A stretch of DNA of 64,000 nt from Spirochaetia bacterium. GTDB taxonomy: Bacteria; Spirochaetota; Spirochaetia; SZUA-6; Bin103. Position numbers and translations under genes: made by a program. The stretch's first letter is position 1. Every line of letters starts with the position of its first letter. The notes beneath the pieces are model-generated. The model did not search any database, was not told the DNA's origin, and saw nothing but the letters and a program-made list of their open reading frames with translations. Below are positions 7,682 to 24,371 of the stretch, piece by piece. The stretch covers positions 256,001 through 320,000 of the forward strand of contig CBDAOI010000004.1 in NCBI GenBank assembly GCA_965198005.1, given 5' to 3'.

Positions 7682-9514
7682 CTAATGACCCATTGCTTCC
7701 TTCAGCGCACTATCAATCCAGAGGCGGGCGAAGACAACATGGTTTTGGGCTGTTCCAAAGCCGCCTTCGGCGTTATAACCTTTCACCCACGGCTGGTGTA
7801 CGCTAAACACTGGGGCCAAAGGTCCCCAGAGGAACCAGTGCTGCTCTACGATGCGCATGTCCATCTCTTTAGTCAGCCTCATCGCCTCCTCTATCGTGGT
7901 AGCCTGTAAATTGGCTTCATAAAAGGCGTCATATTGCGCGTCGGAGACTCCAGAAAAACTCCGTGCAGTGGCCGAGTAAAACTGTGACTGTGCCCACAAT
8001 GGGTAGAACGGATCAGCCTTGATGCCCGCATTCCACCAGGCCATATCATAGTCTGCCGCGCCTATTCGAGCCCCATATTCTGCACCACTTGAAGGTACCT
8101 CAATAACCACATCAACGCCAATCTCACGCCAGTATGCTGCCTGTAATTCTGTCCAGCTCAAATCCTCCGCGGGGTGGAGCACAAACGTGGCCTTGAATCT
8201 AATGCCGTCAGCGCCACGAGCATATCCAGCCTCATCAAGCAACGCTTCTGCCCTTGCCTGGTCATAGGTATAGTATCCCTTAAGCTCTTGGGGCCACTCT
8301 TCAAATGGTACGTGCCACCCCTTGAAGTCCCTGGCGATCAGCCCCCGAGGTATCGTATCCGCCTGACTCTTATAGTAGGTAGCATTCATCGTCTCGAGGT
8401 CCAGTGCCATCTGCAGTGCGTGGCGCACCCTGATGTCGTCCCCCCAGAGCGGCCTGCGCTGGTTCAAACTGACAGAAGTATTCGACCGTTCTGACCACGT
8501 GTGGAACACGAGTTCGGGGTTGGTCCGCATGATGCTCTCTGCCAGGTCTAGAGCCGTTAATTGAGAGGCGCCCGGCCAACCTATGAAATGGATCCTTCCA
8601 CTGCGCAGTCCTGCCAGAACTGTTGCGTTTTCCGTGATAGAGAGGCTCTTTAGCTCGTCAATATACGGCAGGAGGTTCTCCGGGAATTTTTCGTCGTAAC
8701 CCCAGTAGTTGGGATTCTTGGTGAAGGTCATAGAGCTGCCCGGCACCAAGTCAGTTAGCATAAAGGGGCCGGTGCCGACCACGCTCTGCCACTCCCAATC
8801 GGCCCCGTATTCCTCGAGTAGCTCGGGGGGCTGCACAACCGCATTGTTCCAGTCCAAGATAAGGCCCAGGCCACGGAGTCTTTGCTCCTTCAGCTTCATA
8901 ACGACCGTATATTTGTCGGTGGCCACTATCGATTCCCAAGGCAAATCTAGAAGGTTACCTCCTCCTGGGGAAGGTTCGGCTTCACTGAACTCGGTCCCTG
9001 TCAATTTATTTCCCAACAAGCGGTGAAAGGAATGTTCTACATCCTCGGCAGTTAGCTCCCGACCGTTCACCGGCGGCTTATCATGCCAGTGAACGCCCTG
9101 GCGGATGTGGAAGATATAGGTTGTGTCGTCAGGCTGTTCCCAGCTTTCCGTCAGCGCCCCCCGTAGGGCGTATACAGGTGTAAGGTAGCCGCCGACAAAG
9201 GGATATGTGTCCCTATCTATTGCCCAGTTCGTCATGGCCAGTTTCTCTATAACGCCACTGAGAATGTTTAGCGTTCCCCCACCGCCAATATGGGCATCCG
9301 GTCGACGGCTGGCGGGATCCAATCTCATGACCTGGGTCATTGTCCCGCCATACTCTGGCGCGGGCACCACCTGACCTGTGCTGGGGTCGGTCACATACTT
9401 CTTGTCGGCAGCGGCTGCCGGCTCCTCTTCTGCGCCAGCGGCCCAGAGGCCGGTCGCGGTCATTACGAGGACCAACGCAACCGCGAAGGTCTTCGTCATT
9501 CGTACAATATTCAT
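7682..9514 (-). CDS. ABC transporter family-5 substrate-binding protein
   Basis: Signal-like N-terminus, ESWEQPDDTTYIFHIRQGVHWH, VGTGPFML and DIRVRHALQMALD. The start at 9514 follows a GGAG RBS. Confidence 0.9.
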   Translation of the reverse strand: MNIVRMTKTFAVALVLVMTATGLWAAGAEEEPAAAADKKYVTDPSTGQVVPAPEYGGTMTQVMRLDPASRRPDAHIGGGGTLNILSGVIEKLAMTNWAIDRDTYPFVGGYLTPVYALRGALTESWEQPDDTTYIFHIRQGVHWHDKPPVNGRELTAEDVEHSFHRLLGNKLTGTEFSEAEPSPGGGNLLDLPWESIVATDKYTVVMKLKEQRLRGLGLILDWNNAVVQPPELLEEYGADWEWQSVVGTGPFMLTDLVPGSSMTFTKNPNYWGYDEKFPENLLPYIDELKSLSITENATVLAGLRSGRIHFIGWPGASQLTALDLAESIMRTNPELVFHTWSERSNTSVSLNQRRPLWGDDIRVRHALQMALDLETMNATYYKSQADTIPRGLIARDFKGWHVPFEEWPQELKGYYTYDQARAEALLDEAGYARGADGIRFKATFVLHPAEDLSWTELQAAYWREIGVDVVIEVPSSGAEYGARIGAADYDMAWWNAGIKADPFYPLWAQSQFYSATARSFSGVSDAQYDAFYEANLQATTIEEAMRLTKEMDMRIVEQHWFLWGPLAPVFSVHQPWVKGYNAEGGFGTAQNHVVFARLWIDSALKEAMGH

Positions 9515-10662
9515 AACGAACTCCATAGAGTAGTTTCTTGAGAGTATTGCGTAGCGGATTACCGCTCCCTGGCTACTCTCGGGCCCGCAACGCGGACGGC
9601 CAGTCTGAGTCAGATTCACTAAGCGCGCGGCGTGTGACTCAGCGGGTTCACCCCGGCTCACGCCGCGCGCGCGTGCGGTTCTTTGAGTATCATTCGAACC
9701 TCCTTCTTCTCTAGATCTACGTCGGGATCTGCGTTACAATCCCACGCGGGGCGGTGGCCGGCGAAGCAGCGAGTCTGAATGGCCGGCAACGCCGGCGGTG
9801 AGTCTTGCCGGCAGTCAGTCGCAGGCGGGGATCCGGGACGGTTGCGATCGCCGGGAAGGGCGTGGCCGGTCCGCATGCCGGTTTTGCGATGGACCGAGCC
9901 GGCGCAACCGATAGCTATAGCTACGGCGGTGGTGAAGGCGCCCGCGTGCGCGGGGTCGCGTACGCGGCGATCAGCCGGGGCGGTTAGTTGTTTGTCGGTT
10001 CGAAAAAGTGTGTGTGGGGGGGGGGACTCCTCACCATTAAGCAAGCGCGCCGCGAGCTGATTTTCAGCAAATCTCGGCGAGCGGCTGTCAGGGGAACAGA
10101 GTGTCATAAGCGTTGACGTGTTATAGGTCACTCAAGCCCTCCGCAGGTGAGGCACAGCCCTACCCAGATGTAGTCGCGATGTCGCGATTGACTGCATCCC
10201 ACCCTAGAATAACCTCCGCTCCCGTGGACGTCAACCACGAATGATGGCCTGAAGAGACAGTCTGGGGGGCCCACCATTTGTCAACCCCCGCCGCGAAAGG
10301 ATTTCCGGGGAGGGGGGGATGGGCAAGGGTAGGACACGCCGGCTGCGCTGCCGCTAACCGGTGGCAGCGCTGAGTAGCGTTTTCAGCCATCTTTTGCATC
10401 CGTTCAAACCTGAGACTCTTAGTATACCACCTCTGCGGCAACCAATCAACAGAAAAAAACAGGCGAATTGAAGGTTTCTTGAGATTTCTTTCAGGCAGCC
10501 GCGGCAGCCGAGAGCCCCTCGCGGCGCCGACTCGGGCGCATCGCCCCTCCGGAGCCGTCATTCGCCGGCGATGTGGCCGTCCCCAGGCCGTTCACCGTCC
10601 ACGTCGGCCTCACAGCGGCCCGCTGAGGGCCTTCCAGCCCCTCGGGGGTAAGCCTGGGGTAC

Positions 10663-12573
10663 GAGCGCCAGGCTAACTGGCATATGACAGAGGGTGAAAG
10701 TCCCTCGGAACGAAGGAGCAGCCAATCCACGTTTCTCCGCGAGCCGTGCGTTGGCACCTGCGAGGGTGCAGGCGAAGCGTCGGCAGCGGTGCGTGCGGGC
10801 AGAGTTATGGAGCGCCGCAAAATACGACATCTGGAGTGCCGAGACTCTGTACTCGGTCGAAGGCAACACCGGTCGAGCCAGTATGGTGAGGATCGACCGG
10901 GCTCCACGGCGTCGAAGAACTCAGGCACGTACGTACGTCATATACCGGGACCTGGGAGGTCTTCGGGTCGTCCCGGCGAGTCGTCGCCGGGACCGCGGAG
11001 GGAAGGCGTGAGGCTGGACCAAAGATGAACGACCCGAAGGAGTCGGACATGGGCATAGTAGCGGCGAAGCCGGCGAACAAGGGAGCGCAAGCGACTGCGG
11101 AGACGGTGGAGCGAAGGCCCATGACCAACGGGAATTCGCAAGGCCAAAGCACGGGCCGGACGCAGAGTCGGGCAACCGTGACACAGGCGGCCGAGCGGAT
11201 ACGGCAATTCGTAAAGAGAGAACCGCAGGAGAAACTCACTGCGCTGCTGCACCACGTGACGCCGGAAGCGCTGGGTGGCCTATTACGCGCTGAAGCGCGA
11301 AGCGGCCCCGGGGGTGGACGGGATGACGTGGCGGGAGTACGAGACGGGGTTGGAAGTGCCTTGCACGACCTGCACCGGAGAGTACACACAGGAGCGTACC
11401 GAGCGACCCCGGTACGGCGGGTCAACATCGACAAGCCGGACGGAGGCACACGACCGCTGGGGGTGGCCGCGCTGGAGGACAAGATCGTCCAGAAGGCCGT
11501 GGTGGATGTGATCCTGACACCGATCTATGAGGAGGAATTTCTCGGGATCAGCTATGGGTTTCGACCGGGGCGAGGGGCACACGATGCGTTGGACGCACTG
11601 GCCTACGCCATCGAACGGCGCAAAGTGAACTGGATATTGGACGCGGACATTCGCGGCTACTTCGATTCGATCTCGCGGGACTGGTTGATCAGATTCCTGG
11701 AGCATCGGATTGGAGATCGGCGGGTACTGCGGCTGATAAAGAAGTGGCTGCGCGCTGGGGTACTGGAAGAAGGCCGACAGATCGACGCGGGGCGGGGTAC
11801 AGCGCAAGGGTCGGTGATTTCACCGATGCTCGCGAATATATACTTGCACTACGTGTTGGACCTGTGGGTCACCAAGAAGTGGCGGCCGCAGGAGGCGCGC
11901 GGAGACATGATCATAGTGCGCTACGCAGATGACTATGTCGCCGGGTTCGAGCATCGTGACGATGCGGAACGCTTCCTGCGGGAACTGAAGGAGCGATTCA
12001 GAGGCTTCGAGCTGGAACTGAACGCCGACAAGACCCGACTCCTCGAGTTTGGACGGTATGCCGAAAGGAACCGCCTGGCGCGCGGAGAAGGGCGACCGGA
12101 GACGTTCGACTTTCTGGGTTTCACGCATTATTGCAGGAAGGACAGGAAAGGACGCTTCGGGCTGGGGCGGAAGCCAATTCGGAAGCGGATGAATCGTACC
12201 TGAAGAGGATCAAGATCGAGCTCCGCAGACGCATGCATGATGACGTGATGGAAACCGGGCGCTGGCTGGGACGGGTACTGCGCGGATGGCTCAACTACTA
12301 CGCGGTACCCACCAGCTACCGCTACCTGTTCGATTCGTGTGGCGTCTGCGAGGAATCTGGGTAAAGATTCTACGCCGGAGGTCCCAGAAGGACCGATTCT
12401 CCTGGGCTTGGATGCTGGCGATCAGCATCAAGCTGTGGCCCCAACCCCGAATCGTACACTCATGGCCGGACCGGCGATTTGCCGTCAACCACCGAAGGTA
12501 GGAGCCGGATGGTTTAACGACCACGTCCGGATCTGTGCGGGGGGCGCCGGGTAACCGGCGTTCCTACCGCGCC
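10663..12573 (+). mobile_element. Group II intron, bacterial class E-like (copy A)
   Basis: The boundaries are defined by comparison with inverted copy B. Domain V (gagccggatg...gtccggatc, AGC triad) and domain VI lie at 12502-12573; the RT ORF is internal. Confidence 0.93.
11025..12501 (+). pseudogene. ltrA: Group II intron reverse transcriptase/maturase, no endonuclease domain, with several small frameshifts
   Basis: APGVDG, RPLGV, SYGFRPGRGAHDAL, QGSVISP, RYADD and FDFLGF are present. Indels near 11274 and 11359 are seen versus copy B; frame breaks also occur near 12200 and 12330. Confidence 0.88.
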
Positions 12574-14726: not shown

Positions 14727-16274
14727 ATGGTCCTACCTTTCCGGCCCCATGCCTCACCCGGGGTCATCCAAGCGCTGGGGGAACGGGTCCTTCCGCCCTA
14801 CGAAGCGCATTTGAACGATCAGGGCTGTTCACCCGGCCTCTTGCACCGGTCGACAGCCACAGCCCGCCACATGATTGCGTGGCTGACGATCAACGAATCG
14901 GAGGTTGCGACACTCGACATCCGCGGCGTGTACCGCTTCCTGCGCCACGACTGCCACTGCCCAGCCGATGTCCGCAACCAGTCGGCCGCGCCGTCACCAT
15001 GGCACGCGCATCGTTTCCTCGGTTACTTGCTCGAAACCGGGCAGGCCGCGGTTCCCGCCTCGATCGTCACGGGCGGCGGACTGGTGGAAGCGTTTGCGGC
15101 CACCCTGGTGGCTCAAGGCTACCGGGAAGGGACCGTTCGCGGGGTGCGCAGCTCCTGTCGCCACCTCGTCGTCTGGCTGTACCGTTCGGAGCTCGCGTTG
15201 GGAGAGATCGAGGACCGCGTTCTGCAGCGGTTTCTCGACCATCGCTGCGATTGCGAGCACCCTGGATTCTTCGGCCGGTCCAGTGCATTCGCTGGAAGCC
15301 GCCGCACCCAGGCGGAGATCGCCAAGTTTGCCAGCTTCCTGATCGACCGGGATGTGGTTGCCGACTGGCGGGAGCCACTGCCGAAGGCCAGCGGCGGGGC
15401 CCATACCGACGCCTTCCTCCGCTGGCTGCGCCAGCACCGTGGTGTCCGCGACACCACCCTGAAGGCATACCGCCAATCCCTGCAAGCCCTGTTGCCGTTG
15501 CTGGGCGATGCCCCGGGCGCCTATGACGCCGCGTCGATCCGCGCGGTCATCCTGGGCCGTGCACAGTCCGGCTCCCGCAACACGGCCGAGGGCAGTGCCC
15601 TGCGATCGTACCTGCGCTTCTTGGCAGTCCAGGGGCTGTGCCGTCCGGGGCTCGTTGCTGCGGTCCCTACGATCCCGCGTCGGACCGCCTCGCAGTTGCC
15701 CCGGTATGTCGAGCAGGAAGACATCGAGGCCCTGATCGCGAGCTGCGACACCGCCACTTCCATCGGATTACGGGATCGGGCCGTCCTGCTGCTGCTGCTG
15801 CTGGCACGGCTCGCTCTGCGCCCCGGAGAAGTTGCCGCCTTGAGGCTCGACGACATCGACTGGGAGCAGGCGTTGGTCGCGGTCAGCGGGAAGTCGCGCC
15901 GCAGCGCAGCGCTGCCGTTGCCGCAGGAGACCGGGGACACCCTCAAGGACTACATCCTGCGAGCGCGACCGCGCACCGCCTGCCCGACGGTGCTTCCGCG
16001 ATTCCGTGCTCCGCACGGCTGCCTGTCCGCCTCCGCGGTCAGCGCAATCGTGCGCCGGGCCATGCAGCGGGCCGGGATCGACGGCGAGGGCCTCCCGGCC
16101 GCCTACGTGTTCCGTCACTCGAGAGCCACCCATCTGCTGCGCAGCGGAGCTGCGCCGGAGGCCGTCGGCGCCCTCCTGCGCCACCAGTCGGTGAAGACGA
16201 CCGCACTCTACGCTCGCGTGGATGCTCCGATGCTGCTCGCTGTGGCGCAGCCCTGGCCGGGGGAACCCCGATGA
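14727..16274 (+). CDS. RIT tyrosine recombinase A
   Basis: RDRAVLLL, LALRPGEV, VFRHSRAT and LLRHQSVKTTALYA. Confidence 0.9.
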   Translation: MVLPFRPHASPGVIQALGERVLPPYEAHLNDQGCSPGLLHRSTATARHMIAWLTINESEVATLDIRGVYRFLRHDCHCPADVRNQSAAPSPWHAHRFLGYLLETGQAAVPASIVTGGGLVEAFAATLVAQGYREGTVRGVRSSCRHLVVWLYRSELALGEIEDRVLQRFLDHRCDCEHPGFFGRSSAFAGSRRTQAEIAKFASFLIDRDVVADWREPLPKASGGAHTDAFLRWLRQHRGVRDTTLKAYRQSLQALLPLLGDAPGAYDAASIRAVILGRAQSGSRNTAEGSALRSYLRFLAVQGLCRPGLVAAVPTIPRRTASQLPRYVEQEDIEALIASCDTATSIGLRDRAVLLLLLLARLALRPGEVAALRLDDIDWEQALVAVSGKSRRSAALPLPQETGDTLKDYILRARPRTACPTVLPRFRAPHGCLSASAVSAIVRRAMQRAGIDGEGLPAAYVFRHSRATHLLRSGAAPEAVGALLRHQSVKTTALYARVDAPMLLAVAQPWPGEPR

Positions 16275-17197
16275 CGCTGGCCGACCACGTTCTGACCTAT
16301 GCCGCGTTCAAGCGCGCCACCGGCCTGGCCTTCCGGGAACAGGAGCGGCTGCTGGCCAGCTTCGCCCGGCACGCCGAAGCGCGGGGCGAGCGAAGCGTGC
16401 GCGTCGAGACTTGTCTCGACTGGGCGTCGCAGTCTGCGTCACCGCATAAAAAACAACAGCGGCTGCACCTCGTCTGCGGGCTGGCAGCCTACTTGCATGC
16501 CGAGGACGAACGCCACGAGGTGCCCCACCGCGATGCACTCGGTCGCCAGAGGTATCACCGCCCGCCGCCGCGGCTCCTGTCGCTGGAGCAGATCTGCCAA
16601 GTCATGGATGCGGCGCTGGAGCTGCCTCCCGCCGGCTCCATCACCCCCGTGACCTTCCATTACCTGATCGGGCTGGTCGCGGCGACCGGCCTGCGCCGCG
16701 CGGAAGCCACGGGCCTGCGGCTCGATGACGCCGCTGCGGACGGATTGCAGATCCGCCACGCGAAAGGCGGCAAGCAGCGGCTCGTGCCCCTCCACGGGAG
16801 CGTGCGGACCGCACTGAACCGGTATCTGCAGATCCGCGGGCGATGCGGCAGCCCCAGCGACCGTCTCTTCGTGCTCGCCGGCGGCCGGCCCGTCCAACCG
16901 GACTACCTGTCCCATACCTTTGTCCGACTCGCGCGCCAGATCGGCCTGCGTGGGGGCCCGGGCGAGCCCGGCCCGCGCCTGCATGACCTTCGTCACAGCT
17001 TCGCGACGCGTGCCCTGGAGACCGCTGTGTCCGGCGGTCGGGCAGAGACCAGCCGGCACCTGCTCGCGCTGTCCACCTATCTCGGCCATGCCAACGCCAC
17101 TGATACCTACTGGTACCTCGAGGCAACCCCGGTCCTGCTGAACCAAGTGTCGGCAGCCACCGAAAGACTGCATGCGGGGAGGGGGGACGATGACTGA
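16271..17197 (+). CDS. RIT tyrosine recombinase B
   Basis: TGLRRAEA, PRLHDLRHSFA and LSTYLGH...TYWYL; ATGA overlap with A. Confidence 0.92.
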   Translation: MTLADHVLTYAAFKRATGLAFREQERLLASFARHAEARGERSVRVETCLDWASQSASPHKKQQRLHLVCGLAAYLHAEDERHEVPHRDALGRQRYHRPPPRLLSLEQICQVMDAALELPPAGSITPVTFHYLIGLVAATGLRRAEATGLRLDDAAADGLQIRHAKGGKQRLVPLHGSVRTALNRYLQIRGRCGSPSDRLFVLAGGRPVQPDYLSHTFVRLARQIGLRGGPGEPGPRLHDLRHSFATRALETAVSGGRAETSRHLLALSTYLGHANATDTYWYLEATPVLLNQVSAATERLHAGRGDDD

Positions 17198-18014
17198 GCT
17201 CGCAGGGCCGCTGGCGGCCTTCCTCCAGGAGCACCTGCCGCGCGACCGCGGCGCCAGCCCGCATACCGTGGCGGGCTACGCCGCCAGCTTCAAGCTGCTG
17301 GCGGTCTTCGCGGCGGAGCGTCACAAGCTCCGGCCGTGCCGGCTGCAGGTCGGACATCTCGACATCCCGACGCTGCTCGCCTTTCTCAACCACCTCGAGA
17401 CGGACCGCGACAACGGCGTGCGGACCCGCAACGCCCGCTTGTCTGCGATCAAGTCCTTCTTCCGCTACCTGGAGTTCCGCCACCCGGAATGCTTGGATCT
17501 GGCGGCACAAGTGCATGCGCTGCCCCAAAAGAAAGCCGATCTGCCCCCGCTCGACTACCTCGACCGCGACGAGGTCCGGGCGCTGCTCGAGGCCCCCGCC
17601 ACCCACACGGTCACCGGCCTGCGGGATCGCGCCATGCTGTGCCTGGCCTACAATGCCGGCCTGCGCGTCTCGGAACTGGTCGGCCTGGCCCTGGACGACC
17701 TCCAGGCACCGGGACTCGACCGCATCCGGATCCTGGGCAAGGGCCGCCGCGGCCGCGTCCTGCCGCTGTGGAAGGAAACCCGCGGCGCGCTGCGCACTTG
17801 GCTCGGTGTCCGGCCGGACTGCCCCGACCGGCATCTGTTCCTGAACGCCTTCAAAACCGGCCTGACGCGACGCGGCTTCGCCAAGAGACTCGCCTTGCAC
17901 GCCAAGGCCGCGGCACGCGCAGTACCTTCGATCGCGGGCAAGGCCATCACGCCACACGCCCTGCGCCACGCCTGCGCACTTCATACGCGTTATGGGAACC
18001 TGCTCAGCCCCTAA
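17190..18014 (+). pseudogene. RIT tyrosine recombinase C, 3'-truncated (lacks the LGH...Y catalytic tail)
   Basis: YNAGLRVSEL, GKGRR and TPHALRHACA are present, then the frame runs into the terminal repeat. Confidence 0.8.
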
Positions 18015-18099
18015 CCGCTTGCCACGCAACGGCTCATGGCGCCCAGGTTCCCATATTAGCGGGGGGCCCATAATGGCTGTTACCGGAACGTTCCGATAA

Positions 18100-18828
18100 C
18101 AGCCACTTCTTTATCAGCCGCAGCACCCGCCGATCTCCAATCCGATGCTCCAGGAATCTGATCAACCAGTCCCGCGAGATCGTGTCGAAGTAGGCGCGAA
18201 TGTCCGCGTCCAATATCCAGTTCACTTTGCGCCGTTCGATGGCGTAGGCCAGTGCGTCCAACGCATCGTGTGCCCCGCGCCCCGGTCGAAACCCATAGCT
18301 GATCCCGAGAAATTCCTCCTCATAGATCGGTGTCAGGATCACATCCACCACGGCCTTCTGGACGATCTTGTCCTCCAGCGCGGCCACCCCCAGCGGTCGT
18401 GTGCCTCCGTCCGGCTTGTCGATGTTGACCCGCCGTACCGGGGTCGCTCGGTACGCTCCTGTGTGTACTCGCCGGTGCAGGTCGTGCAAGCGCACTTCCA
18501 ACCCCGTCTCGTACTCCCGCCACGTCATCCCGTCCACCCCCGGGGCCGCTTCACGCTTCAGCGCGTAATAGGCCACCCGCAGCGCTTCCGGCGTCACGTG
18601 GTGCAGCAGCGCAGTGAGTTTCTCCTGCGGTTCTCTCTTTACGAATTGCCGTATCCGCTCGGCCGCCTGTGTCACGGTTGCCCGACTCTGCGTCCGGCCC
18701 GTGCTTTGACCTTGCGAATTCCCGTTGGTCATGGGCCTTCGCTCCACCGTCTCCGCAGTCGCTTGCGCTCCCTTGTTCGCCGGCTTCGCCGCTACTATGC
18801 CCATGTCCGACTCCTTCGGGTCGTTCAT
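18100..18828 (-). pseudogene. ltrA: Group II intron RT, N-terminal half (copy B)
   Basis: Open frame MNDPKESD...RVLRLIKKWL, cut by the RIT insertion. Confidence 0.88.
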
Positions 18829-19379
18829 CTTTGGTCCAGCCTCACGCCTTCCCTCCGCGGTCCCGGCGACGACTCGCCGGGACGACCCGAAGACCTCCCA
18901 GGTCCCGGTATATGACGTACGCACGTGCCTGAGTTCTTCGACGCCGTGGAGCCCGGTCGATCCTCACCATACTGGCTCGACCGGTGTTGCCTTCGACCGA
19001 GTACAGAGTCTCGGCACTCCAGATGTCGTATTTTGCGGCGCTCCATAACTCTGCCCGCACGCACCGCTGCCGACGCTTCGCCTGCACCCTCGCAGGTGCC
19101 AACGCACGGCTCGCGGAGAAACGTGGATTGGCTGCTCCTTCGTTCCGAGGGACTTTCACCCTCTGTCATATGCCAGTTAGCCTGGCGCTCATACCCAGGG
19201 CACCCCCCGGAATCCCGCAAAATGCCCGTCAAAGCCGTTTCCCACCACCGCCGACACCGCTGACACCGCGCGGTCCGCCACCCGGCTCCCGTGTGCCACC
19301 TCGAACATCAATCCGAGACCGGCACTGATCAGCGCTTGCAGGTCAGGAACGACGTGAGGTGCGGGCTGCGGAACCCCCC

Positions 19380-19661
19380 TCAGTCGCGCCCATACCCGCG
19401 CGGCGGCTCGACGCTCTCCAGTTCGGCAAGATCAAGCCCGCACATCGCCTCCAGCCGCTGTGCGACCGCGGACTCCTGGAGACTGTCGGGCAAGTGGTCG
19501 AGCCACGCTTGATACTCACCCTGGAGGTCGAGCAGGGTGCCCACCGCATCCTGCCAGCGCTGCGGTCGGGACCTGCGGTCTTGCGGCCTGCGGTACTGCA
19601 CCCGGGGCTGCGCTGCCTTGCGGCGCTCTCGATAGCGCCGTTCCGCGTTACTTACCGCCAC
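19380..19661 (-). CDS. Small helical hypothetical protein, MGE-associated
   Basis: 93 aa with a basic N-terminus, RWQDAVGTLLDLQGEYQAWLDHLP and a PPRGYGRD end; co-oriented downstream of the IS110 gene. Confidence 0.7.
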   Translation of the reverse strand: MAVSNAERRYRERRKAAQPRVQYRRPQDRRSRPQRWQDAVGTLLDLQGEYQAWLDHLPDSLQESAVAQRLEAMCGLDLAELESVEPPRGYGRD

Positions 19662-19828
19662 TGCTCTACTTCCCGTTACGCTCCGTTACGTAACAGGTTA
19701 AAAGTTCGGATTTCCGTGCACCGGTGCCGGTTCGCGCCGAGCAGTCTCACCGCGCCTCCTGCCGGGTCTCCGGTCGCTCCCGTGAGCGGCGGGGACGACG
19801 CTTCCCGCGCCCGGCCCACCTTCCCCCA

Positions 19829-21091
19829 TCAGGCGGTCAGCGGTCGCGGAGCCCGGTGCTGTGGATCAAACTGCGTGCGGTCACGCAGCATCGCGCACGC
19901 CACCGCGAGCAACCGGTCCGCGACCGTACGCAGCGCCCGGCCATGGCGCTGCCCGCGCGCGCGCAGCGCCGCATACCGCTCCCGACTCACCGGATCGTGC
20001 TGGATCGCCACCCGCGCCCAGTGATACATCGCGTTGCTCAGCCGCTGGTTGCAGGCACGGCGCATGCTCACCTGGCAACTCTTCCCCGACCGCTTGGTCA
20101 CCGGCGCCACCCCGGTCAGAATCCGCAACCTGTGGTAGTCTCGCTCAGCCAGCAACTGTGAGGCCTCCGCGAACAGCGTGGCGAGCACGATCCGACCGAC
20201 ACCGGGCATCGAACGCAGGATGACGGCGTCACGCTGCTCTTCTGGTTCACCCGAGTCGTCGGCGGCCACAATCTCGGCCAGCAGTTCGTCGAGCCGGCTG
20301 TGCGCCTGTTTGAGTTGCTGGTCGACCAGCTTCAGCCGGGCGATGACGCTCGCGATGTGCGCCGTAGCCGCCGCTATCGTCCCGCGGCCCACCTCAAGCG
20401 GCTGCTGCCGCAGGATGCGCAGCACACCGGCAGCAGCGTGGCGCCGGATGCGGTTGCGCTTCAGGATGGCCGCGACCGACGCCTTCCGGACCCGCGCTGC
20501 CTCCGCCGGCGTCGGCGCCTTCTCCCACAACTCCAGAACCCAGCCCGCGCCGAGGTCACCGCCCAGCTCGATCAGCTGCGGGTAGTAGCGGCGCAGTTGC
20601 TCGCGCATGCGATTGATCAGCCCGTTGCGTTCCTCCTGCAACTCGGCAGTCAGGCGCGACCATTCCCGCAACTCGATCACCGGCGGTGCCTGCACCTGCA
20701 ACTGACGAAAGCTGCGTCGGTCGGTGCGCAGCGAGTCTGCCAACACCCGCGCGTCGCGCCGGTCATCCTTGGCGCCGGCCACCGTAAACCGGTCACGAAA
20801 TCGATCCAGCTGCTTCGGATTGATCGCGTACACCTGCACCTCCCGCTCCAGCAGCATCTCGACCACCGCGCCATGCGGCACCTCGATCCCCGCGTGCACG
20901 CGCTCCGGGTGCCCGCCGGATAGCTCGTGCAACCACGCGCACAAGTCGGCGATGCCGGCGCCGCTATGGGCCACCTGCCGTTCCGCGACCACCTCCCCGT
21001 CACCCTCAAGCACACAGATCTGATGTTGCTGGGTCGCCCAATCGATACCCACGAACCACTGTTCGGTCTGTTCGGTCTGTTCGGTTGACAT
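19829..21091 (-). CDS. IS110-family DEDD recombinase/transposase
   Basis: WFVGIDWA, GIEVPHG, AKDDRRDA, PGVG and the catalytic-serine motif PVTKRSGK; GGAGG RBS upstream. Confidence 0.95.
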   Translation of the reverse strand: MSTEQTEQTEQWFVGIDWATQQHQICVLEGDGEVVAERQVAHSGAGIADLCAWLHELSGGHPERVHAGIEVPHGAVVEMLLEREVQVYAINPKQLDRFRDRFTVAGAKDDRRDARVLADSLRTDRRSFRQLQVQAPPVIELREWSRLTAELQEERNGLINRMREQLRRYYPQLIELGGDLGAGWVLELWEKAPTPAEAARVRKASVAAILKRNRIRRHAAAGVLRILRQQPLEVGRGTIAAATAHIASVIARLKLVDQQLKQAHSRLDELLAEIVAADDSGEPEEQRDAVILRSMPGVGRIVLATLFAEASQLLAERDYHRLRILTGVAPVTKRSGKSCQVSMRRACNQRLSNAMYHWARVAIQHDPVSRERYAALRARGQRHGRALRTVADRLLAVACAMLRDRTQFDPQHRAPRPLTA

Positions 21092-21094
21092 CCT

Positions 21095-21345
21095 GTCACC
21101 TCCCGAGATTGTGGAGCTCGGCTGCCACGATGTCGTTCCACCCCTGTACTGGTGCTCCGGTGCTCCGGTGCTCCTGGCACCTTCCCACCTGGCACTACTC
21201 CTCACTGGGTATCCATCGCGGCACTCCTACCGGGGCACATGTCCCCCCCGGGCGCTCTACGGCGCGGGGGGCTCAAGGTTGCTCCCGGTAGGCTGCCTTG
21301 CCCGCCTGGGATTCTAGCAGTCCCTGGCGAACTATCTAATCTCTA
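21095..21345 (-). ncRNA. Putative IS110 bridge RNA
   Basis: Structured non-coding leader. Two 9-nt segments match the left arm and complement the right arm of the junction at 21352-21371. Confidence 0.75.
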
Positions 21346-21418
21346 TAAAGGGTACAGGGGGGACTCCTCACCATTTGTCAACCCCCGCGAAACGAATTCT
21401 TGGAACTCCCGCCGGGGG

Positions 21419-21962
21419 GGGCGCAGCGAGGCTAGCTGCTGAACTTGCGGGTGTAAGTCCCGCCGGCGCAAATCCCAGTGTGGCGCCGTAGTTATATCCG
21501 GCAGTCGACAGGGGCGACTCTGACGGCTGAAAGCCCGGAAGTAAACGTACTCAGGGGAGGGCGTGAGCCCGACCGACCAACCTAGGAGGCTAACAACCAG
21601 AAGGGCCGTAGCGAGAGCGAACGGACTAATCGCCGAAAACCTCCCCAGCGGGAAGTTGGTTGCTGGATCTCGGAGTGCCAAGGGTTTCCCCCTCCTACCC
21701 GATGGCCAGTGCTGCTGCGGAAGAAACTGGGAAGTGCACGCGGTAGGCTCCCGGCGGAAGTTGAAGGCGGCAATTCTGGATAGTTCAGCAGTGAAAGCCC
21801 GGAAGGTGTGCTGCTCAGGCAGGATGATCCTCGAATGCCAAGGACCGGACCTATAACCGCTGGATGGCGGGAAGTGGAACGGAGAGCAGCAGACTGGCGG
21901 ATGAGGCCACCAAGCGACGATGGCCGCGACAACATAACGCGGCTGGAGCGAGGGCCTCAGGG
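21419..21962 (+). mobile_element. 5' fragment (about domains I-III) of a second, different group II intron, cut by IS3
   Basis: GGGCG start, gcgggtgtaagtcccgc hairpin and a DIII-like gacaacataacgcggctggagcgagggcc segment; no RT ORF or domain V. Confidence 0.65.
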
Positions 21963-22029
21963 TGAGGTGGTCCTGGAAAATTGGACAGGAGGTTAAGGTG
22001 TATTCGAGGCCATGAGGAGGGCCAAGGAG

Positions 22030-22314
22030 ATGGCGACGACACGACGTCGATTCACAGCGGAGTTCAAGGCACGGGTAGTGGTGGAAGCGTTGCGCGGTGA
22101 CCGCACGATCCAGGAGATCGGGGCCAAGCACCACGTCCATCCGAACCAGGTGAGCGGCTGGAAACGGCAAGCACAGGATGGTCTGCGGGAACTGTTCGCG
22201 GACGGCGCCAGCCGCCGGCAGGCGGATCACGAGGCGACCATCCACGAGTTGCACGCGAAGATCGGCGAGTTGACGGTGGAGCGGGATTTTTTAGCACGCG
22301 GGCTCAAGCTCTGA
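22030..22314 (+). CDS. IS3 transposase OrfA
   Basis: Identical protein to 3218-3502. Confidence 0.9.
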   Translation: MATTRRRFTAEFKARVVVEALRGDRTIQEIGAKHHVHPNQVSGWKRQAQDGLRELFADGASRRQADHEATIHELHAKIGELTVERDFLARGLKL

Positions 22315-22334
22315 GACGGGACGAACGACGGAAG

Positions 22335-23168
22335 ATGATTGAACGTGACTACGAGAACTTGAGCTTGAGCCGGCAGTGCACCCTGCTTGGACTGAGCCGC
22401 TCGGCGTTGTACTACACGCCGGTCGGCGAGAGCGCGGCGAACTTGGCGCTGATGCGGCGCATCGATGAGTTGTACCTGCAGTACCCGTTCTACGGCGCTC
22501 GGCAGATGGTACGCCATCTGGCGCGTGAGGGGGTGACCGTCGGTCGGCACCGGGTGCGGCGGCTGATGCGGCTGCTGGGCTTGGAGGCGATCTACCGCAA
22601 GCCGCGGCTCAGCGTCGCGAACCCGGAGCATCGGGTGTATCCCTATCTGCTGCGGGGGCTGACGATCGACCGCGCGAATCAGGTGTGGTGCGCGGATATC
22701 ACCTACATCCCGGTGCAGGGCGGGTTCCTGTACTTGGTGGCGATCATGGACTGGGCCAGCCGGCGGGTGCTGGCGTGGCGGCTGTCCAACACGTTGGACA
22801 CCCGGTTCTGTGTCGAGGCACTGGAGGAAGCGCTGGAGATGTACGGCAACCCGGAGATCTTCAACACCGATCAGGGGAGCCAGTTCACCAGCATCGCGTT
22901 CACGGAGCTGCTGGTGGCGGCGGGGATACGCTGTTCGATGGACGGTCGCGGTCGTTGCCTGGACAATGTGTTCATCGAGCGGCTGTGGCGGTCCCTGAAG
23001 TACGAAGCGGTCTACCTGCACGAGTTGGCGGACGGCTTCGTGGCGCAGCGGGTGATCGACGAGTGGATCGAGTTCTACAACGAGGTACGACCGCACTCGG
23101 CACTCGGTGGCCGGACGCCGTCCGAGGCCTACCGCGGCGTCGCGGCGCCCGGACGGGAGGTGGCGTAA
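22335..23168 (+). CDS. IS3 transposase OrfB (DDE)
   Basis: WCADITY, TDQGSQF and ERLWRSLKYE in one frame. Confidence 0.93.
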   Translation: MIERDYENLSLSRQCTLLGLSRSALYYTPVGESAANLALMRRIDELYLQYPFYGARQMVRHLAREGVTVGRHRVRRLMRLLGLEAIYRKPRLSVANPEHRVYPYLLRGLTIDRANQVWCADITYIPVQGGFLYLVAIMDWASRRVLAWRLSNTLDTRFCVEALEEALEMYGNPEIFNTDQGSQFTSIAFTELLVAAGIRCSMDGRGRCLDNVFIERLWRSLKYEAVYLHELADGFVAQRVIDEWIEFYNEVRPHSALGGRTPSEAYRGVAAPGREVA

Positions 23169-23397
23169 CGGACATGGGGAGCAGGTGGCAATTGCGGGTT
23201 CCGAGGTCAGAGGGCGAGCGGGTGTGCGATCCGGTGCGGGGAGTTATCCACAATGTCCACAGGATCAAGCCCCCCCTCCCCCAGACCCCCACCCCCTGTT
23301 ACCGCCACCTGTTTTTGACAGGGAGGGGTGGGTTGACAGACAACGGAATACACCTTAACTTACCCCCCGGGCTGTCCAACCAACCGGGACCACCTCA

Positions 23398-23522
23398 GGT
23401 TGGCGCCCTCAGCGAGCCACTGGTCGCCGGCCGTGAGGGCCATCACGTGCGCCTTGGAGACCATGGGAACCACGCTGAAATCGAAATTGGCGAGGGTCTT
23501 GCCGGGTGGCAGGCGCGCCTGG
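23398..23522 (-). pseudogene. istB: IS21 IstB fragment, upstream half of the split gene
   Basis: QARLPPGKTLANFDFSVVPMVSKAHVMALTAGDQWLAEGAN continues in frame into the 3023-3150 fragment. Confidence 0.85.
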
Positions 23523-23613
23523 TTTGCGCGTATTGTCAAGCCCCGTTACATTGGGGAGCGTAACAACCGTGCCGGGCGACACAGAGACTAGGCACGACGT
23601 AAGGACGGTCGAA

Positions 23614-23859
23614 ATGAGCGACATTCTCCAGACCGAGAAGGACTATCTCAAGACCAAGCAAGCAGAGCTGGCCAAGGAGCACCCCGGCAAATACCTGGTG
23701 ATCCGGAAGGGAGAGGTGATCGGAGCGTACGATTCGTACGACGAAGCTGTCGAGGCGGCCGATTCTCTCGGTATTGGACCGTTCCTCGTCAGGTCGGTCC
23801 ACCGTCCCGAGGACGATCCAACACTCGTCGTACCAGCCCTGGCGCTTGGCCTCCTGTGA
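23614..23859 (+). CDS. Small DUF5678-like protein
   Basis: YLKTKQAELAKEHPGKYLVIRKGEVIGAYDSYDEAVEAA; GTGA overlap with the protease gene. Confidence 0.7.
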   Translation: MSDILQTEKDYLKTKQAELAKEHPGKYLVIRKGEVIGAYDSYDEAVEAADSLGIGPFLVRSVHRPEDDPTLVVPALALGLL

Positions 23860-24371
23860 TACTCAACAGCCGCTACGAACCGGGCAAAAGCAAGGCCAAC
23901 GGCGGCGACAAGATGCTCCCGCCCCGAGTGGGGCTGCGAGAATTCGGTCCCCGCGTCAGGGTCAGCGTTTCACCAGTCGGGCGTCCGGGAGCAAACCTAG
24001 TACATGGTCACGCGCTGGTGGATACAGGGGCGGCCATCACATGCATCGACCAGAACGCCGCCGAGAGAGCCGGCCTTACTGTCGTCGGGAGCGGACCCCT
24101 GTCTTCCGCTACCCACTCTCAAGAGACGGTCCCGATATTCGCCGGGAAACTGGATGTCGTGGGGTTCGGAGCCGTAACGCTCAGGCGTGCCTACGGGGTC
24201 AAACTCGCTTCACAGGACATGGCCGCGATCATAGGGCGGGATCTCATGGAAACTGTGCAATTTTGCCGGCATTGGGGTATGCACTTCCGGGCCGGCCATC
24301 GTGGCGGCGATTGCGTCCGGCGGATGCACCGGAGCGCCGTCGCAGCGAAGGGCGCTCTCAGGGTAGGTTGA
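23856..24371 (+). CDS. Retropepsin-like (clan AA) aspartyl protease, C-terminus possibly aberrant
   Basis: ALVDTGAAITCID and IIGRDL motifs. Confidence 0.8.
   Translation: MILNSRYEPGKSKANGGDKMLPPRVGLREFGPRVRVSVSPVGRPGANLVHGHALVDTGAAITCIDQNAAERAGLTVVGSGPLSSATHSQETVPIFAGKLDVVGFGAVTLRRAYGVKLASQDMAAIIGRDLMETVQFCRHWGMHFRAGHRGGDCVRRMHRSAVAAKGALRVG

Follow-up and report, generated by a model that had tools for sequence, protein, structure and literature searches.

Bridge RNAs of IS110-type elements were first described in 2024, and Hiraizumi and colleagues are said to have dealt in that year with IS621 of E. coli and its bridge RNA. In the account of Durrant et al. (PMC11208160), as far as its accessible text goes, the first loop of the RNA binds the target and the second binds the donor, the 3′ side pairs with the top strand over 4-7 nt, and the core is included in the pairing. 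Two further reports, both accessible in part, concern repeated arrangements of such elements. For expanded or tandem IS110 loci, the accessible portion of Hu et al. (bioRxiv 10.64898/2026.08.14.744561) describes complete donor pairs at internal boundaries as essentially absent, and for CazIS110-1 of Caloranaerobacter azorensis tandem repeats are described as experimentally observed, transient by-products of transposition (bioRxiv 10.1101/2025.10.25.684509). Here we analysed a stretch of 64,000 nucleotides of spirochaete DNA, referred to as the window, and all coordinates without a contig name are positions within it. The region 21095-21388 holds a genuine bridge RNA of the IS110 group, for which the support is good; it is a new member of an already known kind, and the clade to which it belongs obeys the bridge RNA rules given in the accessible text of Durrant et al.

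The likeness to IS621, as the available part of its description presents it, extends over the whole design of the element. Both have a DEDD recombinase with a serine-bearing Tnp domain and an RNA encoded in the left end (LE), with the target loop ahead of the donor loop; in each loop the 5′ strand reads like the top strand and the 3′ strand pairs with it, one dinucleotide core is used in target and donor, and a -35 box lies in the right end (RE). The preliminary description of this DNA had proposed the IS110 identity, the loop order and the strand logic, and these agree both with the accessible text of Durrant et al. (PMC11208160) and with the covariation among homologues. The window element differs from IS621 in having a distant protein sequence, of 420 aa as against 328, the core CC instead of CT, a right target guide (RTG) of 7 nt, a left donor guide (LDG) that leaves the core uncovered, a homopolymer target, a long apical extension on the inner hairpin of the donor loop and a promoter-like site in the LE. 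The IS1111 subgroup, with its seekRNA or bridge RNA in the right end, shares the recombinase family and the RNA-guided logic. In the window, however, the RNA lies 5′ of the gene, in the LE, and most homologues have a short RE; this position of the RNA, together with an RE terminus 22-74 nt past the stop codon in nine of the 11 homologues with a located RE, indicates that the element is not of the IS1111 type.

Positions 21359-19829 on the minus strand very probably hold the LE and the recombinase gene of an IS110-group insertion sequence, here called copy 'B'. The gene (19829..21091, minus), assigned by Pfam and by alignment with IS621, has an open frame of 420 aa (ORF 21091-19829) that matches PF01548 (DEDD_Tnp_IS110; E 2.2e-34) and PF02371 (Transposase_20; E 1.3e-15), and the protein contains the DEDD/RuvC-like domain as well as the Tnp domain with its serine. 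In a partial alignment with IS621 chain 8wt6_A (E 3.3e-08), GID, IE, DxxD and SG, which we take to be the catalytic residues, are in register; the protein also aligns with ISCro4 (9t56). The genome of origin (4.9 Mb, 4 contigs) has PF01548 matches at 14 places, four of them with the full domain and an open frame of at least 419 aa. Nine LE copies in this genome have a common start base, CCCCCTGTAC (window 21361), and unrelated left flanks, and the left boundary of the element therefore lies inside what had been described as a junction. The first LE bases of copy 'B', CTGTAC (21352..21357, minus), are the right donor arm (RD) as defined by the nine LE copies and the homologues, nearly all of which keep CTGTACC. 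Two of the LE copies (C3:151425 and C4:2390265) carry a 56-nt insertion right after GUGAGGAG, by which the left donor guide is split, and another (C1:208769) has a 23-nt insertion within the inner hairpin of the donor loop.

Relatives of the recombinase were found at 32 loci, at 44-84% identity and with one partial match at 96% among them, in a scan of one genome per species. They come from metagenome-assembled genomes (MAGs) labelled Spirochaetia, Hyphomicrobiaceae, Acidobacteriota, Gemmatimonadales and Rokubacteria, and also from Bradyrhizobium. Twenty-two homologue leaders were aligned with the window leader, and 18 of these 23 entered the structure test; L043 (interrupted and misaligned) was left out, as were the near-duplicates L048 (of L047), L052 and L053 (of L051) and L058 (of L045). 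The Bradyrhizobium MAG (L042, about 2700-2960) has a copy of the element apparently inside DNA that encodes another copy's left target guide; there the flank, GAGCTGCCTAATCCAC followed directly by CTGTACC, is the guide region, and the element seems to have targeted its own guide.

The 5′ non-coding end of copy 'B' encodes, in all likelihood, a bridge RNA of roughly 190 nt (about 21306-21117), and what carries this reading directly is the sequence, the covariation of the structure and the matching of guides to flanks in relatives. The 271-nt leader folds at -127.3 kcal/mol (z = -4.73), a stability reached by none of 200 shuffles. For the 18 leaders, RNAalifold predicted 34 pairs, 19 of them with compensatory change. 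The four helices that define the loops (28 pairs, in leaders from several phyla) have 96.0% of their cells paired as against 85.4% in shuffles, and 19 of the 28 stem pairs change on both sides as against 10.3, values reached by none of 500 shuffles; sliding the helices by 1-3 columns lowers the pairing to 25-58%. Changes on both sides occur in 10 of the 12 pairs of helix 1, 2 of 4 in helix 2, 6 of 8 in helix 3 and 1 of 4 in helix 4. The LE thus contains a non-coding RNA with two internal loops and conserved closing stems. The motifs listed in the preliminary description were all found where it had placed them on the minus strand, including GTGAGGAGT (21371-21363), CC (21362-21361) and CCCCTGTAC (21360-21352). 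Within the 64-kb window, GTGAGGAGT occurs three times (0.48 expected; three reached in 1 of 100 shuffles) and CCCCTGTAC twice (0.23 expected; two reached in 2 of 100). Covariation across homologues, both of the stems and of guides with flanks (the latter had been named as a check), is a stronger test than these chance tests of 9-mers and fold, and in the relatives the guides do follow the flanks. Rfam had no match over 21095-21388 at E up to 1, and Rfam 15 may hold no bridge RNA model; a scan of 17000-24000 and of two right-end units likewise left leader and units without an RNA family.

A scan for promoters gave a single site inside the LE, as against 0.1 expected in shuffles. This putative promoter (21311..21338, minus) consists of TAGATA, a spacing of 16 nt and TG-n-TAGAAT (extended -10), and in the alignment the homologues have a TAnnnT box at a similar distance 5′ of loop 1. 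From the internal site, read as 21338-21311, the RNA would begin a short way 5′ of loop 1. In one study, three RNA-seq libraries yielded contigs that lie on 21111-21361, which attests presence in RNA libraries and is not proof of transcription. The RNA-library contigs X4, X5 and X11 leave 20922-21106 of the transposase gene uncovered, a gap that proves nothing.

The donor-binding loop (21125..21221, minus), recognised by covariation and guide match, is closed by a stem at 21221-21214 and 21132-21125. Its 5′ strand contains the LDG GUGAGGAGU (21205-21197), which equals the left donor arm (LD) at 21371-21363, and its 3′ strand contains the RDG GUACAGGG(G) (21149-21141; GUACAGGGG in the preliminary description), which is complementary to core plus LE arm, CC-CTGTAC, and in the window to 21360-21352. 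The same relation is seen in the clade. The RE could be located in 11 of 18 homologues, where the 8-nt 5′ guide of the second loop recurs 3′ of the gene as CTTGACAAATGG-guide-CC; the guide agrees with the RE terminus at 8/8 positions in eight of the 11 and at 7/8 in the other three (permutation 0.0012). The RE consensus, CTTGACAAATGG-LD-CC, lies 22-224 nt past the transposase stop in ten homologues and 1373 nt past it in L037. This motif 3′ of the transposase gene confirms that the left arm is a right-end terminus. The 3′ guide, GUACAGGG, faces an LE sequence, CC-CTGTAC, which persists throughout the clade; around the core, the guides of the donor loop agree with the two termini of the element itself. 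In copy 'B' the LDG is followed by A, not C, so that it leaves the core uncovered, and among the 18 leaders three have an LDG that extends over two core bases and several an LDG that extends over one. The donor loop also has an inner hairpin (stem 21195-21192 / 21155-21152), and its apical extension holds three copies of GGAGCACC (21174-21151, minus, by direct reading). The preliminary description was right to place this 8-bp repeat in the donor loop; the repeat belongs, however, to the apical part of the inner hairpin, outside the strands that bear the guides. That apical part is variable, being long in 4, medium in 3 and short in 11 of the 18 leaders.

The target-binding loop (21226..21292, minus) is supported by covariation and flank match and is closed by CCUACCGGG (21292-21284) and CCCGGUAGG (21234-21226). 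The left target guide (LTG), UUGAGCCCCCC, occupies 21276-21266, with the core CC at 21268-21267 by the register of the homologues; a small inner hairpin (21265-21251) follows, and then the RTG, GGGGGGG (21249-21243), which falls within the segment CCGGGGGGG (21251-21243) of the preliminary description. The two strands of this loop, UUGAGCCC-CC on the 5′ side and GGGGGGG on the 3′ side, would specify a target of (TT)GAG followed by a C-run, with CC as core. In homologues, the 3′ guide of loop 1, read as its reverse complement, agrees with core plus right flank at a mean of 6.0 of 7 positions, compared with 3.7 for 102 non-cognate pairs, and for the five non-core bases the observed sum was reached by none of 10,000 permutations. 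The flanks concerned are diverse, for instance CCGCACG (L047), CCACCGC (L051), CCTACGT (L044), CCAGCTC (L050), CCCGCTC (L039) and CCCCCCC (L040). The 5′ guide of loop 1 agrees with the left flank at 5.1 of 9 positions as against 3.8 for non-cognate pairs (permutation 0.0007), the left target guide being scored in strict register; one-base shifts lower the cognate score in L042, L050 and L055. The target-loop guides match the flanks on both sides of a common core. In the window's own genome the non-C part of the 5′ guide (UUGAG) fits most left flanks poorly. The left flank in the window agrees with the LTG at five of nine positions in strict register, all five in the C-run, and at eight of nine when slid by one base (GAGTCCCCC vs GAGCCCCCC, read by eye).

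That the target would be a C-run had been predicted beforehand, and the genome supports it: 17 of 27 RE termini have at least seven C without a break after them, as expected from GGGGGGG, C-rich runs come after the others, and C precedes all nine LE copies. The genome has no exact copy of the predicted target, TTGAG with at least 10 C after it. The nearest empty sites have ...GCGCTTATG and then a C-run (3 sites, 2 mismatches), a flank which also carries two LE copies in the same genome and one in L035. An all-G right target guide is present in 6 of the 18 leaders, which indicates that C-run targeting recurs in the clade. In the papers chiefly about IS110 that a literature search listed, supplements aside, the terms 'homopolymer' and 'poly-C' do not occur.

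The DNA on the left of copy 'B' is itself informative. The left flank in the window, cgcgggggTTGACAAATGG-TGAGGAGT-CC, corresponds to the RE consensus, and the supposed junction is therefore a head-to-tail joint between an RE and an LE. By this consensus, the left partner is a solo RE terminus of the same IS110 family, here called 'A' (21361..21413, minus; 53 nt), which on direct reading has a C-run of 8 C on its outer side (21414..21421, minus) and a -35-like TTGACA (21381-21376, minus). The LD of RE 'A', GTGAGGAGT (21371-21363), is followed by the core CC at 21362-21361. Under the homologues' rule LT-CC-CTGTAC, the six C of the joint (21357..21362, minus) comprise the core of RE 'A' (21362-21361), one target C (21360), the core of copy 'B' (21359-21358) and one RD base (21357), with the register in the homopolymer uncertain by one base either way; six is the count as assembled, assembly homopolymer lengths can be wrong, and among the DNA contigs listed none spans 21361-21421. 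A true donor junction has three C, as follows from the homologues' rule LD-CC-CTGTAC. The intact donor junction of the preliminary description accordingly holds in part, since both arms are real, perfect and adjacent; there are, however, six C instead of three, and the arms are three bases off register. Its remark that two bases between the guides are uncovered does not stand: the appearance is due to the three extra (target) C, and the 3′ donor guide GUACAGGG covers the core. The arrangement of C-run, 53-nt unit and C-run is found at three other places in the genome, there without an LE, and an RE terminus followed by an LE occurs only in the window among the 27 RE termini of the genome and the 32 homologue loci. 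Besides the window's own, no circle or tandem junction was present in the genome and the 32 homologue loci, and two scans of metagenome contigs gave no three-C circle or tandem junction and none with 0-8 free bases. The left neighbour is no complete second element but just the 53-nt solo RE between its C-runs.

Most likely, copy 'B' inserted in the C-run flanking the 53-nt leftover RE 'A' of the same family. An earlier element would have left solo RE 'A' in a C-run, and copy 'B' would then have inserted in the remaining C-run, three bases past the core of RE 'A', an event that would join RE and LE head to tail and leave three C too many. On the model of IS621, the complex of recombinase and RNA would pair the circle junction GTGAGGAGT-CC-CTGTAC with the C-run, and strand exchange would take place at CC. 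What we infer in this account of copy 'B' is that it is transcribed, that it recombines and in what order the events took place. LD and RD are both perfect and adjacent here, the sole case among the 27 RE termini, and the joint might instead be the relic of a true donor junction whose C-run later went from three to six C by slippage or an assembly miscount. Such a relic could go back to a tandem dimer, to an integrated circle or to an LD-only half-match of a circle with a solo RE (LD-CC-RT) through the donor loop. Half-match recombination of IS621 at LD-only sites (bioRxiv 10.64898/2026.08.31.748434) and tandem IS110 modules (bioRxiv 10.64898/2026.08.14.744561) are reported in the accessible parts of two preprints, and the C-runs of this genome do range from 8 to 28. 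We nevertheless regard a relic as rather unlikely: the joint has six C and not three, its left partner of 53 nt with a C-run on the far side fits a pre-existing solo RE such as the three others without an LE, and the joint calls for no further steps if the flanking C-run was targeted in the ordinary way.

It is very unlikely that the RE-LE joint is itself functional, as a resident donor site and junction promoter (TTGACA in the RE, TACCCT in the LE) by which the bridge RNA would be kept expressed without excision. The spacer between TTGACA and TACCCT is 21 nt with six C, as against 18 nt with three, the donor arms are three bases too distant for the register of the homologues, and the one promoter-like site in the scan is the internal site at 21338-21311, with none spanning the joint. 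These points outweigh the conservation of the TTGACA -35 box in the RE across homologues and the rebuilding of a promoter across the core at the IS621 circle junction, as described in the accessible text of Durrant et al. (PMC11208160). It is scarcely credible that the matches are repeats arisen by coincidence, or that they belong to a 5′ UTR structure of the transposase mRNA that does not act as a guide. Guides and flanks covary across homologues whose guides differ, the stems covary strongly and the 9-mers are rare in shuffles; only the absent Rfam match and the absence of direct RNA evidence speak for it. Insertion of copy 'B' next to a leftover RE can also be set beside the two systems introduced above. 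With the loci of Hu et al., within the accessible text of that report (bioRxiv 10.64898/2026.08.14.744561), the window shares non-coding repeat units or partial modules with an LD match beside IS110 genes, repeated insertion at occupied loci and right ends kilobases from the gene; it differs in having LD and RD together, three bases off register. CazIS110-1, in the available part of its description (bioRxiv 10.1101/2025.10.25.684509), also has a bridge RNA with both loops; the joint in the window differs in being fixed in the chromosome and in adjoining a 53-nt remnant.

Motif scans gave no RE terminus near the transposase stop in any copy of the genome, which suggests that copy 'B' may be immobile. 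The nearest same-strand RE termini are 4.2-11.3 kb from the transposase stop, and several copies have none. For copy 'B', the nearest downstream RE-type terminus in motif scans is AATGGTGAGGAGTCC plus 8 more C (10024..10038, minus), a possible right end 11.3 kb off across nested mobile DNA. BLAST walks, motif scans and comparison with L035-L037 gave no right end of 'B' near the gene; the 3′ regions of L037 and of the window are not homologous, save for a 250-nt stretch of L037 that matches 21962-21712, left of the solo RE. Past the transposase stop follow a 93-aa ORF, a group II intron, two tyrosine recombinase genes, a DDE transposase gene and another intron. The 93-aa ORF (19661-19380, minus) has no Pfam family at E up to 1, and the stretch 19642-19377 also stands alone at three other places (87-89% identity). 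The group II intron copies are at 18100-19207 (minus) and 10644-12203 (plus), with an RT ORF and an Rfam hit (RF02005) at 18932-19156; the 5′ end near 19207 is common to at least 17 intron copies in the genome, the one 3′ of the IS110 gene is cut at 18100 by other DNA, and a plus-strand intron fragment lies at 21445-21616. Within the intron-interrupting DNA, 14727-17197 (plus) holds two neighbouring ORFs for tyrosine recombinases that overlap each other (Phage_integrase, E 1.4e-25 and 1.8e-17) and may represent an element of the recombinase-in-trio type. An IS3-family pair (22012-23168, plus), consisting of an HTH_Tnp_1 ORF and an rve integrase-core ORF, lies just past the solo RE. Elsewhere, at C1:19885-21246, three non-coding units of about 350 nt stand in tandem 3′ of an IS110 copy, and units like them are present after other copies; they resemble the 'tandem non-coding repeat units' of expanded IS110 loci in the accessible part of that report (bioRxiv 10.64898/2026.08.14.744561).

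The genome contains 160 C-runs of at least 8 nt (lengths 8-28), and many of them stand before genes for solute-binding proteins. A C-run lies within 1.2 kb upstream, on the coding strand, of 78 of 147 SBP_bac_5-type genes, and a G-run there of none of the 147. Of the 27 IS110 RE termini, 24 sit in C-run joints and point at an SBP_bac_5-type gene within 3 kb. The layout at such genes is a short module (from several repeat families), the C-run, a conserved leader (ACTTTTTCGAACCGAGAAACAACTAACC...) and the gene, as at 10024-10260 and 7682-9661 in the window and also in L031. The upstream C-runs could be phase-variable spacers or recombination joints. An RE unit of 228 nt (window 10024-10251, minus) has about 20 copies in the genome at 93-97% identity; it consists of a promoter-like site (TTGACG, 17 nt, TATGAT), a module homologous to other modules that precede C-runs, and an 85-nt IS110 RE tail ending in AATGGTGAGGAGT-CC, and it has no Rfam match. 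The solute-binding proteins encoded downstream of these units are only 39-53% identical to that of the window.

A homopolymer target has the consequence that insertion leaves the target intact. Together with what is left of the C-run, the RE (GAGT-CCCC...) once more resembles the target guide (GAGC-CCCC...), and elements and RE fragments could pile up at the same joints because the target survives insertion. The homopolymer target and the joint with a solo RE fit the 2026 reports of half-match recombination and of expanded IS110 loci, as far as the accessible text of these reports goes. The bridge RNA mechanism itself was already known. What the window adds is a natural and fully readable case of its logic in a clade far from IS621, in which four guides and four DNA arms are legible across phyla, and which may be of use for choosing new recombinases and for guide rules (CC as the core, 7 nt for the right target guide, and a possible skipping of the core by the left donor guide). 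It also displays the consequences of a homopolymer target, namely right ends that stand alone or far from the gene, and head-to-tail joints. The observation on the C-runs of solute-binding-protein genes may matter more than the bridge RNA itself. The C-run joints of this genome stand between short promoter-like modules and the genes of the 147-member SBP family. We put forward, as a speculation with low odds, that the bridge recombinase, perhaps through LD-only half-matches, moves promoter-bearing RE modules among these genes. If this is true, the bridge recombinase would be a promoter-shuffling system as well as a selfish element.
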